A stretch of 64,000 bases of DNA from a virus. Taxonomy: Duplodnaviria > Heunggongvirae > Uroviricota > Caudoviricetes. The stretch's first letter is position 1. Each line of letters begins with the position of its first letter. Made by a program: the position numbers and the translations under genes. Positions 2,557 to 35,002 of the stretch are shown one piece after another. The stretch lies in the IMG/VR virus record IMGVR_UViG_2541047680_000004; one strand, given 5' to 3'. The notes beneath the pieces were generated by a model. The model had not been told where the DNA came from. It ran no database searches and saw only the letters and a list, made by a program, of their open reading frames with translations.

Positions 2557-3640
2557 GAATCAGAATATCGTCCCATTTGAAATCATCCAGCTCAGACCAT
2601 TCATGAGGGAAAATAACGACCGGATCTGAATGCTCTGGAGCCTGTCGTTTCATTAGCTCACACACACCTTCCATGTGGTTGTTGTACAAATGCACGTCAA
2701 AGCCAAAATGTACAAATGCACCGGCCATGTGACCCGTAATCTTCGCGAGAAAATGAGTGAGAATGCCATAGCCAGCAATATTGAATGGCATACCAACAAA
2801 AGTGTCTACGCTACGCTGTACGAGGCAGGAGTTGAGGATGCGTTTGGGGATTCCAAGTTCATCCAGTTCAGTTTCAGTAACACTGCCGTCCATCTCCAGA
2901 TCGTATAGCATCTTGGTGTAGATAGACTCATAACCGAGGCGACTGTGTTGAAGACCAATGTCAGTTGCCATCGTTAAACGGGTTTCAAAATCAAGCTCAC
3001 GACTCCACAAAGAGAAGACAAAGTGGCAAGGTGGCAGTTTCATATCCTCAAGCTCGCCTACGTTCCATGCGTTAAGCATGATACGACGATCGGTGGGGTT
3101 CGTGCGCAGTGTATCGACAATACGCTGTAGCTGATCGATTTCACGGGACAGCACTACGCGATCTTCACTGATACCCAGGTATCCCTCGACTTTGTACCCG
3201 CGTTCACGGAAAGTATCGATCTTGCTCAGATATTCACTATGGCTCACGATGCGGGTATCTTCCCATCGACGCCACTGCTTACCGTAAACCGGCCCCAAAT
3301 CGCCATTCTCATCGGCCCATGCATCCCAAATCTTAACGCCGTTATCCTTGAGAAATTGGATGTTGCCCGTGCCTTTCAGATACCACTCAAGTTCGACAAG
3401 CAGTGGCTTAAGATTTACCGCCTTTCCAGAAATAAGCGGCACAGTCCCACCAGTAAGCATGTAGTAAGAGGGAACGTAGCAGGTGCTTAAAGTACCAGTG
3501 CCTGTGCGATCATCAGCCTGCACGCCGCTTTTAAGCACCGTCTCAATAACTTTTGCATACGATGCGTTTGTTACCTGACCGTTCGTATGCTCACGATTCA
3601 AAAGGAGTGACACAAAAACCTCACAAAGATAAGTAACCAC
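2510..3640 (-). CDS. thyA: thymidylate synthase (long form with insertion)
   Basis: DRTGTGT, YGKQWRRW and LPPCH (catalytic Cys) motifs; GTG start; 376 aa is longer than the roughly 264-aa bacterial enzyme. Confidence 0.85.
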   Translation of the reverse strand: MVTYLCEVFVSLLLNREHTNGQVTNASYAKVIETVLKSGVQADDRTGTGTLSTCYVPSYYMLTGGTVPLISGKAVNLKPLLVELEWYLKGTGNIQFLKDNGVKIWDAWADENGDLGPVYGKQWRRWEDTRIVSHSEYLSKIDTFRERGYKVEGYLGISEDRVVLSREIDQLQRIVDTLRTNPTDRRIMLNAWNVGELEDMKLPPCHFVFSLWSRELDFETRLTMATDIGLQHSRLGYESIYTKMLYDLEMDGSVTETELDELGIPKRILNSCLVQRSVDTFVGMPFNIAGYGILTHFLAKITGHMAGAFVHFGFDVHLYNNHMEGVCELMKRQAPEHSDPVVIFPHEWSELDDFKWDDILILGYDPLPWIKVPVAV

Positions 3641-16286: not shown

Positions 16287-16499
16287 TTAGTGTATTTTCT
16301 TTAACAGACCCCAAAGTGTTCCGGCTTTTGTAGTCAGTTTTCCTGTTTCTGGATCGTACATACGCCATTCACGCCGCTGGTGGACGATATACCCATCTTC
16401 ACGTTCCAGACGCTCAAGAATGCCAGGCTGCTTGAAACCCTTAGCACGCCAGTAGCCGCTTGTTTTCTCGATTTCCAGACCTGCCAGTGTTAATGCCAT
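16287..16499 (-). CDS. hypothetical protein
   Basis: 70-aa ORF, start coupled to the stop of the upstream gene. Confidence 0.35.
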   Translation of the reverse strand: MALTLAGLEIEKTSGYWRAKGFKQPGILERLEREDGYIVHQRREWRMYDPETGKLTTKAGTLWGLLKKIH

Positions 16500-16834
16500 T
16501 ATCCAACCTCCTTGCAGTCATCGAAAAGGTAGCTTTGCTGAGAAGCGTGAACGCCATAGAAGCCCTTGTATTTGTTGTATACGAAGTGGTCTTCTCCGAC
16601 GCCGGTTAATTTGCCATTACGGTTTGTGAGATATGGGGATGACAATACTCGATCGTCACGCACTACATAGAACTGGTCGCCGCTGTCTACGACCATCGCG
16701 CCATATGGTGCTTTTATGACGTCGGTAAAAGCGCCATTCTTAATGTCGGCTACAGACATTTCACACTGATAAACAGTGGTGTCGGCCACAACGATCGAAG
16801 AAAGGAACAACAAAGCGAATGGGATGGCCTTCAT
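16499..16834 (-). CDS. secreted hypothetical protein (signal peptide)
   Basis: N-terminal MKAIPFALLFLSSIVVA looks like a Sec signal peptide. Confidence 0.45.
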   Translation of the reverse strand: MKAIPFALLFLSSIVVADTTVYQCEMSVADIKNGAFTDVIKAPYGAMVVDSGDQFYVVRDDRVLSSPYLTNRNGKLTGVGEDHFVYNKYKGFYGVHASQQSYLFDDCKEVG

Positions 16835-17010
16835 GCTGCCACCTCTTTGATTACATCAAATGCTGAATTAAATACGAGCACGATAGCCAAAGCGTTTATG
16901 ACTACTTCGTTCACCGGGGAAAATACTTTACGAATGACACCAGTGAAAATGCAGTCGATGACAAAAGCTATTGACACGATGAGTAACAAGTATTCAATAA
17001 AAATCTTCAT
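16831..17010 (-). CDS. small hydrophobic membrane protein (below ORF-track size cutoff)
   Basis: Manual translation gives a 57-aa hydrophobic peptide (MKIFIEYLLLIVSIAFVIDCIF ...); its TGA overlaps the ATG of the 16499..16834 gene. Confidence 0.3.
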   Translation of the reverse strand: MKIFIEYLLLIVSIAFVIDCIFTGVIRKVFSPVNEVVINALAIVLVFNSAFDVIKEVAA

Positions 17011-17856: not shown

Positions 17857-17890
17857 AAAAAAGGCGTCCAACTGGACGCCTGAACTTTTT
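17857..17890 (-). terminator. rho-independent terminator (bidirectional hairpin)
   Basis: ggcgtcc-aact-ggacgcc stem-loop with A6 upstream and T5 downstream on the plus strand. Confidence 0.6.
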
Positions 17891-17897
17891 AGGGGAG

Positions 17898-18728
17898 TTA
17901 TTTCACTGTAATGAAAGGAGTGTTAGCCCCTTGAGTCATGTACTGCGGTAACTGGCCATTCCATTTATTGATGGCTTCCAGTTCCATAACGTTCGGGTTT
18001 TGACGCAGAGCTTCACCGCGCAGACGAATGGCGTCTGCTTCTGCTTGCGCACGAGCACGGATAGCATCAGCTTCACCATTAGCCTGTTCACGTAGCATAT
18101 TCGCCTCAGCTTTACGTTGTTCAACTTCCTGCTGACGTTGCAGAGTACGCTGGTTAGCCGTTACTTTGGCGTTAATAGATTCAATGACAGTTTTTGGGTA
18201 ATCAGGCTTTCCAACCCATGACAGGCTCAGTACCTCAATACCAACCGGAGACATCTCTTTCTGAATATCTTTCAGTGCGTTGTCCAGCAATTGTGCCTTA
18301 CCACCGTCGATAAATGAGTCAGTGGTCATACGGCTGGCCAAACGGTTTAGAGAGTCGGCAATTTTCTGACGCAGATCTGATTCGGTGATATCGTCTACGC
18401 CTTTGCGATAGGTCTGGAACACCGTCGTTACCTTGTCACGATTAACCAGATACGCAACGCCAATTTTGTGACCAATAGCAGTACCGTCACTCATCTGGAA
18501 TGTGAACGGCTCGTCGTAGGTCTTCATTTGTTTGAAGGTCGGGAATACGTAAAGTTCGGTGTTAAGACCTGTCCATTGGCGACCAACGCCAACCACTTCA
18601 CCAATCCCTTTGTCTTCACCTAATTTGTTTACTTTGATGCCAACGTATCCAGGCTCCACGCGATCGCAGCCAGTAAGACCCATTGTGCAAATAGCCGCCA
18701 GAGCAACTGCAAGTAAACCTTTCTTCAT
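17898..18728 (-). CDS. SPFH/band-7 (stomatin/prohibitin-like) lipoprotein
   Basis: Lipobox LTGC after signal peptide; central band-7-like region; C-terminal Ala/Glu/Arg/Gln-rich coiled coil typical of HflK/C-like proteins. Confidence 0.65.
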   Translation of the reverse strand: MKKGLLAVALAAICTMGLTGCDRVEPGYVGIKVNKLGEDKGIGEVVGVGRQWTGLNTELYVFPTFKQMKTYDEPFTFQMSDGTAIGHKIGVAYLVNRDKVTTVFQTYRKGVDDITESDLRQKIADSLNRLASRMTTDSFIDGGKAQLLDNALKDIQKEMSPVGIEVLSLSWVGKPDYPKTVIESINAKVTANQRTLQRQQEVEQRKAEANMLREQANGEADAIRARAQAEADAIRLRGEALRQNPNVMELEAINKWNGQLPQYMTQGANTPFITVK

Positions 18729-18731
18729 TAC

Positions 18732-18932
18732 TTATTTCCCCTTTGCTTTGATTAATGAGTTGATAAACTTACGACCAGCAATAAGACCGATTACAGGAGC
18801 ACCAAAACCAACGATAACTCCAAACATGACGGCTAAATCACTCTTGGTAGAAATCAGCGACGGAACCAGTAAACCGTAGATGAGAGCCACTGAAAGGCCT
18901 GTGGCTACTGCCAATAGATAGATTTTGAGCAT
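18732..18932 (-). CDS. small membrane protein (possible NfeD-like partner of the SPFH protein)
   Basis: 66-aa ORF with two hydrophobic helices, ends 4 nt before the SPFH gene start. Confidence 0.45.
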   Translation of the reverse strand: MLKIYLLAVATGLSVALIYGLLVPSLISTKSDLAVMFGVIVGFGAPVIGLIAGRKFINSLIKAKGK

Positions 18933-18994
18933 GTGTTTTCCTATGTGGTTGTTATGCGAAAATAATAAGTAAGCACTTATATATTTTCAAGAGA

Positions 18995-19020
18995 TAAAAA
19001 AGGCGTCCTGTGGACGCCTT
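18995..19020 (-). terminator. rho-independent terminator
   Basis: ggcgtcc-tgt-ggacgcc hairpin followed on the minus strand by a T-run; downstream of the recA-like gene. Confidence 0.6.
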
Positions 19021-19024
19021 GTGT

Positions 19025-20098
19025 TTACTCTTCTACTGACTCGGTGGGGTTGTCTTTTGCTCTTCGGTCGTCGATTGCCTGCAAAGCCGCAATGATTTCA
19101 GCCAGTGGCTTCTCCCGATACATCTCGACGATCTGCGATTTGGTGTATTTCTTGTCACCAATTTCAACTCGCCCGCTGGCGTTCTTTGGCAGGTATCCTT
19201 CTTCCAGCATGTACTCGACGAGCGATTCGATAACGTCGAGGCCACGAGTAGGATCGAAGTAGAATTTCCAGGTGCATTTGCCATACGGTGGTGCAACTTT
19301 GTTTTTGATGCATTCTGCGCCTACGTCCTGGCCGATCTTCTCTTTACCATCCTTCATCACCGATGCACCAAGACGGATACGTACAGAAGCGTAGAACTTC
19401 GGTGAATCTCCACCTGGCGACGTAGTAGGGTCGCCAAACATTACACCGATTTTTGTGCGAACCTGATTCAAGAAGATGATGCAGGCGTTGTATTTGCGTG
19501 CCCACAAAGCCAGAGTAGGGAAGTTCGCACTTGTCGCACGAGCCAGTGCCGTATTGTCGTTCATGTTTAGCTGATCTTTGTCTTTGGCAGTGCCTTCAGC
19601 CATCTTTTCGAACTTCTCGGCTTTGGTGTTCGGAACCATAGACGCAAGTGAGTCAGCCACGATACAGATAGGTGCTGATTCAGGGATAAGCTCTTCATCA
19701 CGTACCAATTTAAGTATTGTGCCGATCAACTCTACAGAGTCTTCGAAGGTGTCAGGCTGCTTGTATACCCACTGACCGTCATCCTCATCTGCGTTCAGGC
19801 CATTGGCTACAGCCAGGCCAACGTCAAAACTGTTTTCATGATCGAGGAATACCGCCAGACCATCTTGTTTTTGAGCGGAGATCATCGCTGCTGTCGCAAG
19901 GAACGTTTTCCCTGCACTTGGAGGACCGAATACTTCGACGATACGACCACATGGGAAGCCGCCATCGTAACGACCGGAAATAGCTTTGTTTAACGGTGGA
20001 AAGCCTGTATCAATCCAATGAGTTACTTTCTGAATTTCGTCGTTGCTACCGATTTTCTTTTTCAGAGCAAGTGCCAGTGCGGATTTTCCTTTTGCCAT
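19025..20098 (-). CDS. RecA-like recombinase
   Basis: GRIVEVFGPPSAGKTFLA (Walker A), ICIVADSLASM (Walker B region) and FLNQVRTKIGVMFGDPTTSPGG match the RecA core closely; 357 aa. Confidence 0.8.
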   Translation of the reverse strand: MAKGKSALALALKKKIGSNDEIQKVTHWIDTGFPPLNKAISGRYDGGFPCGRIVEVFGPPSAGKTFLATAAMISAQKQDGLAVFLDHENSFDVGLAVANGLNADEDDGQWVYKQPDTFEDSVELIGTILKLVRDEELIPESAPICIVADSLASMVPNTKAEKFEKMAEGTAKDKDQLNMNDNTALARATSANFPTLALWARKYNACIIFLNQVRTKIGVMFGDPTTSPGGDSPKFYASVRIRLGASVMKDGKEKIGQDVGAECIKNKVAPPYGKCTWKFYFDPTRGLDVIESLVEYMLEEGYLPKNASGRVEIGDKKYTKSQIVEMYREKPLAEIIAALQAIDDRRAKDNPTESVEE

Positions 20099-34348: not shown

Positions 34349-34435
34349 TGGCGGAGAGTAATGGAATCGAACCATCATCGTTTGCACAATGGGACGGTTT
34401 TCAAGACCGCTTGAGCACCATGCTCCCTACTCTCC
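34349..34435 (-). tRNA. tRNA-Ser (anticodon UGA), long variable arm
   Basis: Manual fold of the reverse complement: acceptor ggagagt/actctcc, anticodon loop cuUGAaa, T-arm ggttcgattcc, encoded CCA; about 87 nt. Confidence 0.6.
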
Positions 34436-34755
34436 AGCTATTGTGATGGTCGGTGCTGAACTCCGACACAGGGTTGTAGCAAGCCCCGCAAAGCGCGCAC
34501 TACTGTAGTTGCGGCACATCAGCCTGTGCATTCATCACAATGGTAAGATCACTACCTTTCGACCAGTCATTGTGCACATGAACGACGATTAACCGTAATG
34601 ATATTATCGTTGTGTTGTGAAGCCAGATGCTTATCTTCTGGTTGCTTCAAAGAGCTGCACTTCCTCACAACGGTAAGAGCACTGGTCTGACTCTATCGAT
34701 TTACGGCCTTGTGGGTCAGTATCGCCGATTCGCCCAATGCTCTTACCTGTTGTGT

Positions 34756-34831
34756 TGGTGCCGGTTAACGGACTTGAACCGCTGGCCATTCGCTTACAAA
34801 ACGACTGCTCTACCAACTGAGCTAAACCGGC
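34756..34831 (-). tRNA. tRNA-Thr (anticodon UGU)
   Basis: Reverse complement gccggtttagctcagttggtagagc ... ttUGUaa ... ggttcaagtcc ... aaccggcacca; one mismatch at the top of the anticodon stem. Confidence 0.55.
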
Positions 34832-34835
34832 AATT

Positions 34836-34922
34836 TGGTGGGGAGTGATGGAGTCGAACCACCCGAGTCGCCATGACAGTAGATTTACAGTCTACACCGC
34901 TACCTCTACGGACTAACTCCCC
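34836..34922 (-). tRNA. tRNA-Tyr (anticodon GUA), long variable arm
   Basis: Reverse complement ggggagt ... actGUAaatc ... ggttcgactcc ... actccccacca. Confidence 0.6.
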
Positions 34923-34927
34923 TAAAT

Positions 34928-35002
34928 TGGCGATGGTGGGTGGATTCGAACCACCGACCAGTTGGTTAACAGCCAACTGCTCTACCGCTGAGCTACACCA
35001 TC
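34928..35002 (-). tRNA. tRNA-Asn (anticodon GUU)
   Basis: Reverse complement gatggtgtagctcagcggtagagc ... ctGUUaa ... ggttcgaatcc ... caccatcgcca. Confidence 0.65.

Follow-up and report, generated by a model that had tools for sequence, protein, structure and literature searches.

A moron-type cassette of an Escherichia coli phage-plasmid encodes a predicted SPFH lipoprotein and a dedicated two-helix membrane partner

The stretch of DNA analyzed here, hereafter the window, is the whole 64,000 nucleotides (nt) taken from IMG/VR record IMGVR_UViG_2541047680_000004, and all positions refer to it. Its minus strand carries a two-gene cassette encoding a 66-amino acid (aa) small membrane protein, which we call the partner, followed by a 276-aa protein with an SPFH (band-7) domain. 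The list of open reading frames (ORFs) confirmed two minus-strand genes, running from 18932 to 18732 for the partner and from 18728 to 17898 for the SPFH protein. The two genes lie next to each other in the same orientation, within a single promoter/terminator unit. The features of this unit, listed from its upstream border, are as follows.

19000-19020, minus strand: predicted intrinsic terminator at the upstream border, after a recA-like gene, with hairpin AAGGCGTCC-ACA-GGACGCCTT and a T-run (terminator scan).
18962-18990, minus strand: predicted sigma-70-type promoter, TTGAAA-17 nt-TATTAT, matching 10/12 consensus positions (promoter scan).
18732-18932, minus strand: gene for the 66-aa partner (ORF list; PHROG_1130 match; ratio of nonsynonymous to synonymous substitution rates, dN/dS, <1).
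18837-18872, minus strand: loop motif of the partner, L21-LVPSLISTKSD-32 (alignment of stand-alone partners).
18738-18743, minus strand: Shine-Dalgarno-like AAGGGG within the 3' end of the partner ORF, 9 nt before the SPFH ATG (read from the sequence).
17898-18728, minus strand: gene for the 276-aa SPFH (prohibitin/HflKC-like) lipoprotein (Pfam, PHROG, RefSeq name, AlphaFold, Foldseek).
18666-18728, minus strand: predicted lipoprotein signal peptide, residues 1-20, with lipobox L18-T-G-C21 and Asp22 at +2 (sequence; conservation in homologues).
18102-18662, minus strand: Band_7/SPFH domain, residues 23-209 (Pfam coordinates; secondary structure of the model).
18000-18194, minus strand: long Ala/Glu/Arg-rich helix, residues 179-243 (AlphaFold; alignments to the coiled-coil regions of HflK and prohibitin).
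17946-17963, minus strand: conserved C-terminal motif W256-N-G-x-L-P261 (alignment of 105 homologues).
17862-17881, minus strand: predicted terminator at the downstream border, a second copy of the hairpin, AGGCGTCC-AGTT-GGACGCCT, with a T-run (terminator scan).

The SPFH protein matches the Pfam family Band_7 (PF01145) with E = 2.6e-30 and 106.2 bits (cut-off 23.6). The match spans profile positions 2-176 of 176, and takes in both the globular domain and the coiled coil. The band-7 core proposed in an earlier reading of this DNA, made from the sequence alone (the original prediction), is therefore present over the full profile, and similarity is not limited to the coiled-coil segment. The exact protein is named "SPFH domain-containing protein" in RefSeq, and it matches PHROG_200, labelled "lipoprotein", with E = 3e-108. 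Its domain identity is thus already catalogued; less usual are its conserved and sometimes fused partner, its lipid anchor, its very wide spread among phages and the clean moron structure of the cassette. As indicated by a dN/dS of ∼0.03, the SPFH gene is under strong purifying selection.

The N terminus of this protein, MKKGLLAVALAAICTMGLTG-C21-DRVEPG, consists of a basic MKK, a hydrophobic stretch (GLLAVALAAICTMG) and LTGC, which fits the lipobox pattern [LVI][ASTVI][GAS]C. Cys21 is at least 90% conserved in an alignment of 105 diverse homologues, and C21 and D22 are each at least 90% conserved in 33 close enterobacterial homologues. This is a textbook signal, and we predict that the 276-aa product is a lipoprotein processed by signal peptidase II, in keeping with the LTGC signal of the original prediction. 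In E. coli, an Asp at +2 is an inner-membrane retention signal under the Lol rules, and Asp22 is likely to favor retention of the SPFH protein in the inner membrane. At the other end of the protein, the alignment of 105 homologues shows an invariant W256 and at least 90% conservation of both G258 and P261. By analogy with solved SPFH cages, this WxGxLP C terminus is a probable cap or closure element of a cage.

AlphaFold modeled the SPFH protein with a mean predicted local distance difference test (pLDDT) score of 78.6 from a shallow alignment and 92.7 from a deep one, and low confidence is confined to the last ∼20 residues. In the model, strands begin right after Cys21 and lead into an alpha/beta SPFH core, which is followed by a 65-residue helix (residues 179-243) and a short second helix. 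Since the first strand directly follows the lipidated Cys with no linker in between, the SPFH domain has to lie flat against the lipid-bearing membrane. The long helix bears out the C-terminal Ala/Glu/Arg-rich coiled coil that had been read from the sequence, and as modeled it is the equivalent of the wall helices of SPFH cages.

When the model was compared with the PDB using Foldseek, a probability of 1.00 was obtained for HflK/C, prohibitin, erlin, stomatin, flotillin and the vault shoulder. HflC, HflK, prohibitin and erlin ranked at the top (E ∼1e-13 to 1e-14), the best entries being 7vhq_G/E (HflC, HflK) at E ∼3e-14, and stomatin, flotillin, QmcA (rank 38) and the vault shoulder ranked lower. 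The best-ranked fold families are cage-forming SPFH proteins on the non-cytoplasmic side of a membrane, which agrees with the predicted lipoprotein topology. Sequence searches gave a similar picture. A single-sequence search of the PDB returned weak matches to HflK and prohibitin-2, and a profile built from 105 homologues placed prohibitin-1 first (E = 7.9e-10, residues 7-243), then prohibitin-2, HflK, HflC, QmcA and erlin. In NCBIfam, HflC (TIGR01932) and HflK (TIGR01933) are the nearest models, and neither is reached at the equivalog level (30.2 bits against a cut-off of 134.4 for hflC, and 18.7 against 159.4 for hflK). The resemblance to HflK/C or stomatin in the original prediction thus holds for HflK/C, joined by prohibitin as a nearest relative by both profile and fold; stomatin is not the nearest relative. 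The cassette holds one SPFH gene, whose product has a lipobox anchor, with no adjacent second paralogue and no transmembrane (TM) anchor.

The 66-aa ORF upstream is a real gene, as judged from its match to PHROG_1130 "membrane protein" (E = 2.9e-25), a dN/dS of ∼0.14-0.23 indicative of purifying selection, and its conserved position upstream of the SPFH gene. Its product comprises TM1 (residues 4-23), a short loop, TM2 (residues 33-53) with Pro46, and a basic 13-residue C-terminal tail, RKFINSLIKAKGK, with a charge of +5. By the positive-inside rule, the predicted topology is N-in/C-in with a periplasmic loop, and this loop is conserved in the partner family with the consensus LVPSLISxKSD. The junction of the two genes reads TAA-GTA-ATG, i.e. 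3 nt separate them. Translational coupling, claimed in the original prediction, is plausible; both genes and their proximity are borne out, although they do not overlap.

How far does this arrangement extend? When the 66-aa protein was the query of a word-indexed search, all relatives recovered were at least 71% identical to it, and more distant partners were identified by synteny and a home-made hidden Markov model (HMM) built from 13 stand-alone partners. Of 95 related loci in IMG/VR and GTDB genomes, nearly all have a similarly built small ORF immediately 5' of the SPFH gene, with a spacing of −20 to +3 nt. In the P2-like phage P88, the SPFH protein is 77% identical to that of the window, whereas the partner is only 24% identical. 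Even this divergent partner keeps the loop, as (L/V)(V/L)P-x-(L/M)(I/V)S-x-x-(S/D), the TM2 proline and the basic tail. The partner is also found in virulent phages, where it overlaps the SPFH gene (N4-like Erwinia phage S6), lies one gene from it (Vequintavirinae phage GAP31) or lies two genes from it (Pseudomonas Bruynoghevirus Clew-1), and in Dyella and Luteibacter loci. The fraction of distant loci with a partner is known only roughly; single-protein scans of IMG/VR mostly returned the same enterobacterial loci or no match.

The partner also occurs fused to SPFH proteins. Among the 150 best representatives of clusters at 50% identity, the partner HMM matches an N-terminal extension in 15 (E 1e-14 to 5e-4) and the C terminus of one more, so that ∼11% are fused, and none of the reversed-sequence controls scored. 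The N-terminal fusions run in the order hairpin, cytoplasmic linker, lipobox-bearing hydrophobic segment and SPFH domain. Independently of the considerations above, this order puts the SPFH domain at the inner membrane, on its periplasmic side. Moreover, the PHROG_200 profile has 379 positions, of which the SPFH protein of the window matches 80-359, an offset that fits members with a fused N-terminal two-helix module. Judged from sequence comparisons, these fusions are the strongest evidence for a functional link between the partner and the SPFH protein. Together with the conserved synteny, they point to a dedicated partnership and back the small membrane partner that had been predicted.

Several records illustrate how the pair has been annotated or rearranged. 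In temperate phage phiP27 (AJ298298.1), an unannotated partner ORF at 2756-3001 (HMM E = 1e-19) ends at the start of the SPFH gene. The phiP27 SPFH product is called a "putative serine protease", a legacy misannotation that recurs in many phage records. Two further loci, L087 and L088, are Shigella flexneri and E. coli chromosomes. In L087, ∼770 nt separate a partner-like ORF from the SPFH gene downstream of it, as if an insertion had taken place between them. L088 has an arrangement like that of L087 immediately upstream of its SPFH gene; the scan with the partner HMM covered L087.

The cassette is delimited by a repeated structure. The hairpin AGGCGTCC-N3-4-GGACGCCT occurs just twice in the window, at the two cassette borders, and not once in shuffled controls. 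Enterobacter pFJMB80017_2 and Klebsiella p1_115032 are without the cassette, and there a single hairpin after recA is followed by the sequence that elsewhere follows the second copy. By this comparison, the cassette is a clean insertion/deletion polymorphism flanked by two copies of a terminator, and the pattern suggests that it was gained or lost either through recombination at the recA terminator or through duplication of this terminator. Every phage-plasmid allele keeps the promoter block, CTTGAAAATATATAAG.ACTTACTTAT(T/C)AT, including those whose coding sequences have diverged to a synonymous rate (dS) >1.5, which argues that the promoter is used. Promoter and terminators, found by consensus scans, are both conserved across alleles, in line with the possession of its own promoter and terminator that defines a moron. 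We thus regard the pair as an autonomous, moron-type accessory unit made up of a predicted promoter, two genes and a terminator. There is no compositional signature of foreign origin in the cassette, and an Rfam scan of the region yielded only a sub-threshold match, on a terminator, and no non-coding RNA.

The window matches E. coli phage-plasmids of ∼108 kb that were deposited under the phage names CMS-2020a, PhiR41_1 and Cyrano, as well as hundreds of non-mobilisable IncFIB-type plasmids, including Yersinia pestis pMT1. The host replicon is, on the strength of these matches, a roughly 108-kb pMT1-type E. coli phage-plasmid. The pair sits between a RecA-like recombinase and a DUF7238 gene, in a replication/recombination module. 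In other phages it is embedded in an early lytic operon (P88) or lies in early or DNA-metabolism regions (S6 and GAP31).

Several neighboring features were recorded. The 357-aa RecA-like recombinase (19025-20098, minus strand) is intein-free, whereas the same gene harbors an intein/LAGLIDADG homing endonuclease in Cyrano (a 2340-nt coding sequence) and in several E. coli and Enterobacter plasmids; by this comparison, the intein is a presence/absence polymorphism of a selfish element. Downstream of the cassette lie two more small ORFs of envelope type, a 59-aa hydrophobic ORF (16831-17010, minus strand), which overlaps the next ORF by 4 nt, and a 111-aa ORF (16499-16834, minus strand) with a signal-peptide-like N terminus and membership of PHROG_2077, for which no function is assigned. 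Elsewhere in the window there is a cluster of four tRNA genes (34349-35002, minus strand; Ser-TGA, Thr-TGT, Tyr-GTA and Asn-GTT). On Y. pestis CO92 pMT1 (NC_003134.1, 50102-52649), a block of recombinase, SPFH and 5'-3' exonuclease genes shows ∼80% DNA identity, and a Y. pestis contig (L086) encodes a partner that is 58% identical at the aa level.

The SPFH protein is widespread. By tblastn it is present in 377 phage records out of 50,697. Temperate carriers include phiP27, Stx2a phages, P88, phi1026b and Klebsiella prophages, and virulent carriers include N4-like phages (67% identity in S6), Vequintavirinae, FelixO1-like, Bruynoghevirus, phiCbK-like and jumbo phages; homologues also occur in crAss-like and Lak phages. 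The cassette or its SPFH gene is found in 283 of 5,426 complete E. coli genomes, and a HMMER search against 1.84 billion representatives gave 195 clusters at E ≤ 1e-30 and 2,816 at E ≤ 1e-3. Some GenBank phage homologues are named "prohibitin family protein". The phage SPFH gene has repeatedly been noticed in genome papers that called its role unclear or speculated about lysogeny (PMC13239085, PMC8540360, PMC10269572, PMC4936722). Our literature searches found no mechanistic study of phage SPFH proteins, and the only functional paper found concerns PM0222, a 25-35 kDa HflK/C-like protein of a Pasteurella multocida prophage that is reported to occur in outer-membrane vesicles and to signal via TLR1/2, and whose deletion attenuates virulence (PMC9872710).

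Taken together, we propose, with a probability of roughly 0.6, that the cassette encodes a lipid-anchored periplasmic SPFH ring or cage that sits on the inner membrane together with the two-helix partner and corrals host membrane proteins. The first gene would produce an inner-membrane hairpin, N-in/C-in, in which only the periplasmic loop, the TM2 proline and the basic cytoplasmic tail are well conserved. The second gene product would be cleaved at Cys21 and held at the inner membrane, the mature chain being a complete prohibitin/HflKC-type SPFH protein with a membrane-apposed SPFH1/2 region, the 65-residue wall helix and the WxGxLP C terminus. This protein would multimerize into a ring or cage, as every solved SPFH protein does, with its acyl chains tethering it to the inner membrane from the periplasmic side. 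The partner may nucleate the cage or fence it in the bilayer, supplying in trans the TM element that HflK/C and prohibitin have in cis, and the cage would isolate a patch of inner membrane with the proteins in it. The likeliest client would be FtsH-type membrane proteolysis/quality control, as for HflK/C and prohibitin, and its sequestration may keep membrane components of the phage or the host stable while the plasmid-prophage is carried and early in lytic growth.

This proposal stands on what was observed of the domain identity, the lipobox, the conservation and fusions of the partner, the cassette architecture and purifying selection; from these observations we infer the localization, oligomerization, partner contact and client. 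Several points weigh against it. With HflK/HflC scores far below the cut-offs and a single SPFH paralogue, FtsH binding is not to be taken for granted. No partner was detected close to the SPFH gene of phiCbK-like CcrSwift, FelixO1-like phiEa104, Sutterella and several IMG/VR clades, and loci L116-124 and L187-189 are among those without one; the partner is therefore frequent rather than obligatory. Most of these partner-less SPFH proteins still carry a lipobox. Reading Asp+2/Arg+3 as a retention signal relies on the Lol rules as known for E. coli, and distant homologues carry other +2 residues. Lastly, PM0222 was located in outer-membrane vesicles (PMC9872710), although its membership in the phage SPFH family is not verified.

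As for the client, a conserved host machine such as FtsH-type proteolysis is at most a tentative suggestion made by analogy. We lean toward it because the nearest characterized relatives all regulate membrane-protein degradation, and toward a conserved host client in general because the SPFH protein is very conserved across unrelated phages and hosts (P88 and S6 above). This conservation fits a conserved target or a self-assembly constraint better than an arms-race function, an indirect argument. Extending the same idea, the PxLIS hairpin and the SPFH lipoprotein might form a "split prohibitin" system, with its TM fence in trans or fused, that serves as a general host-takeover tool by seizing FtsH, or a different conserved machine of the inner membrane, from its periplasmic face. 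We regard this as speculative and rather unlikely as a whole. Its carriers would be phage-plasmids and P2-like, lambdoid/Stx, N4-like, rV5-like, jumbo, crAss-like and Lak phages.

Other functions can be envisaged for the pair. It may be a superinfection-exclusion or anti-phage module that blocks genome entry across the inner membrane or shields an entry factor, expressed from its own promoter in the plasmid-prophage state. The moron-like build with a constitutive-looking sigma-70 promoter, the presence/absence polymorphism of the cassette and its early-region position in virulent phages, reminiscent of T4 imm/sp or T5 llp, are what one might expect of such a module, and a role in adsorption or DNA entry has been speculated upon (PMC13239085). 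However, a search of PADLOC-DB v2 gave no defence-system match for either protein at E ≤ 1, our literature searches found no paper tying a phage SPFH protein to exclusion, and the very strong purifying selection and high conservation across phages and hosts are unlike typical exclusion genes, so that we judge this function unlikely, albeit conceivable. More improbable still is a lysis-timing device, in which the partner would be a class II holin/antiholin-like hairpin and the SPFH cage would restrain or organize it, or else stabilize the inner membrane against premature depolarization. Class II holins have two TM domains, an N-in/C-in topology and a basic tail, and the partner resembles them in size, in its two TM helices and in its basic C terminus; in addition, the SPFH homologue of one Klebsiella phage is labelled "RIIB lysis inhibitor", although this label is probably unreliable. 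Yet the cassette lies among recombination/replication genes rather than beside an endolysin or spanin, it occupies early regions in other phages, the conserved element of the partner is the periplasmic loop and not the TM faces, and hairpin-SPFH fusions at the frequency seen here are hard to square with a hole-forming holin.

A role in lysogenic conversion has likewise little to recommend it. Here, the lipoprotein would reach the outer membrane or vesicles and act on an animal host as a TLR2 agonist and surface/virulence factor, as reported for PM0222, whose vesicle location, TLR1/2 signaling and attenuated deletion (PMC9872710) invite the comparison, as does the recombinase-SPFH-exonuclease block on Y. 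pestis pMT1. Against this, TLR1/2 activation is unspecific and caused by any triacylated lipoprotein, the kinship of PM0222 is unverified as said above, an inner-membrane location is indicated both by Asp at +2 and by the fused 2TM-SPFH forms, and many members of the family come from strictly virulent phages of environmental hosts (Caulobacter, Erwinia and Rhizobium) and from crAss/Lak phages, in which a virulence function would be meaningless. Finally, the original prediction saw in the pair a mirror of bacterial NfeD-SPFH operons, which would make the partner a minimal NfeD regulating a stomatin-type scaffold. That a small membrane gene adjoins, and is probably co-transcribed with, an SPFH gene is in keeping with this, and QmcA-YbbJ is among the fold matches, though low. 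However, when searched for, NfeD (PF01957) was not matched by the partner at E ≤ 1 in Pfam, nor was any NCBIfam family. With 66 aa and a 13-residue tail, the partner has no room for the oligonucleotide/oligosaccharide-binding (OB) fold of NfeD. The SPFH protein, being a predicted lipoprotein, would therefore be periplasmic, opposite to cytoplasm-facing partners of NfeD such as QmcA. Moreover, a published survey of the superfamily has no NfeD for the prohibitin/HflKC-like subfamilies (PMC2636767). We consider this operon reading effectively refuted by the missing NfeD match, the short tail and the opposite side of the membrane.

We therefore retain the lipid-anchored periplasmic cage with its two-helix partner as the preferred interpretation. 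If FtsH or a similar machine is captured, the pair would represent a new route by which phages control host membrane proteostasis; if no such capture takes place, the gene would be an annotated accessory gene of the ordinary kind. SPFH scaffolds (prohibitin, HflK/C, stomatin, flotillin and erlin) are a current topic in structural biology, and phages have spread one form of them widely. The present analysis defines a clonable unit (promoter, 66-aa partner, lipoprotein and terminator), ties the partner to the system and predicts where the complex would be located.

Among known systems, the most direct counterparts are the families PHROG_200 and PHROG_1130. The two cassette proteins are direct members, and the entries give no function and do not record the pairing. 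QmcA-YbbJ and other NfeD-SPFH operons are likewise two-gene units of a small membrane protein and an SPFH scaffold, sometimes fused. The phage pair differs from them in that its partner is without an NfeD domain or OB fold and its SPFH protein would lie on the other side of the membrane, and QmcA ranks far behind HflK/C and prohibitin, whether by sequence or by fold. E. coli HflK/HflC-FtsH offers a periplasm-facing SPFH cage on the inner membrane and a link to phage biology via the stability of lambda CII. Unlike HflK/HflC, however, the phage protein has neither a TM helix nor a cytoplasmic N terminus, and there is one paralogue instead of two. On the basis of published traits, the phage protein may also be likened to the prohibitin-like SPFH4 subfamily: Hinderhofer et al. 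(PMC2636767) described prokaryotic prohibitin-like and HflK/C subfamilies as periplasm-oriented and lacking an NfeD partner, and the phage protein has prohibitin-1 as its best solved relative and no NfeD. Prohibitin itself (PHB1/PHB2) is anchored by an N-terminal TM helix, whereas the phage protein would be anchored by an acylated Cys, and a single phage-carried gene with a dedicated two-helix partner replaces the PHB1/PHB2 heteropair, at an identity of only ∼15-17%. Nevertheless, the two share a length of ∼270 aa and a common layout of SPFH1/2, long coiled coil and C-terminal cap, and prohibitin holds its domain on the non-cytoplasmic face of an energy-transducing membrane, as we predict for the phage protein.

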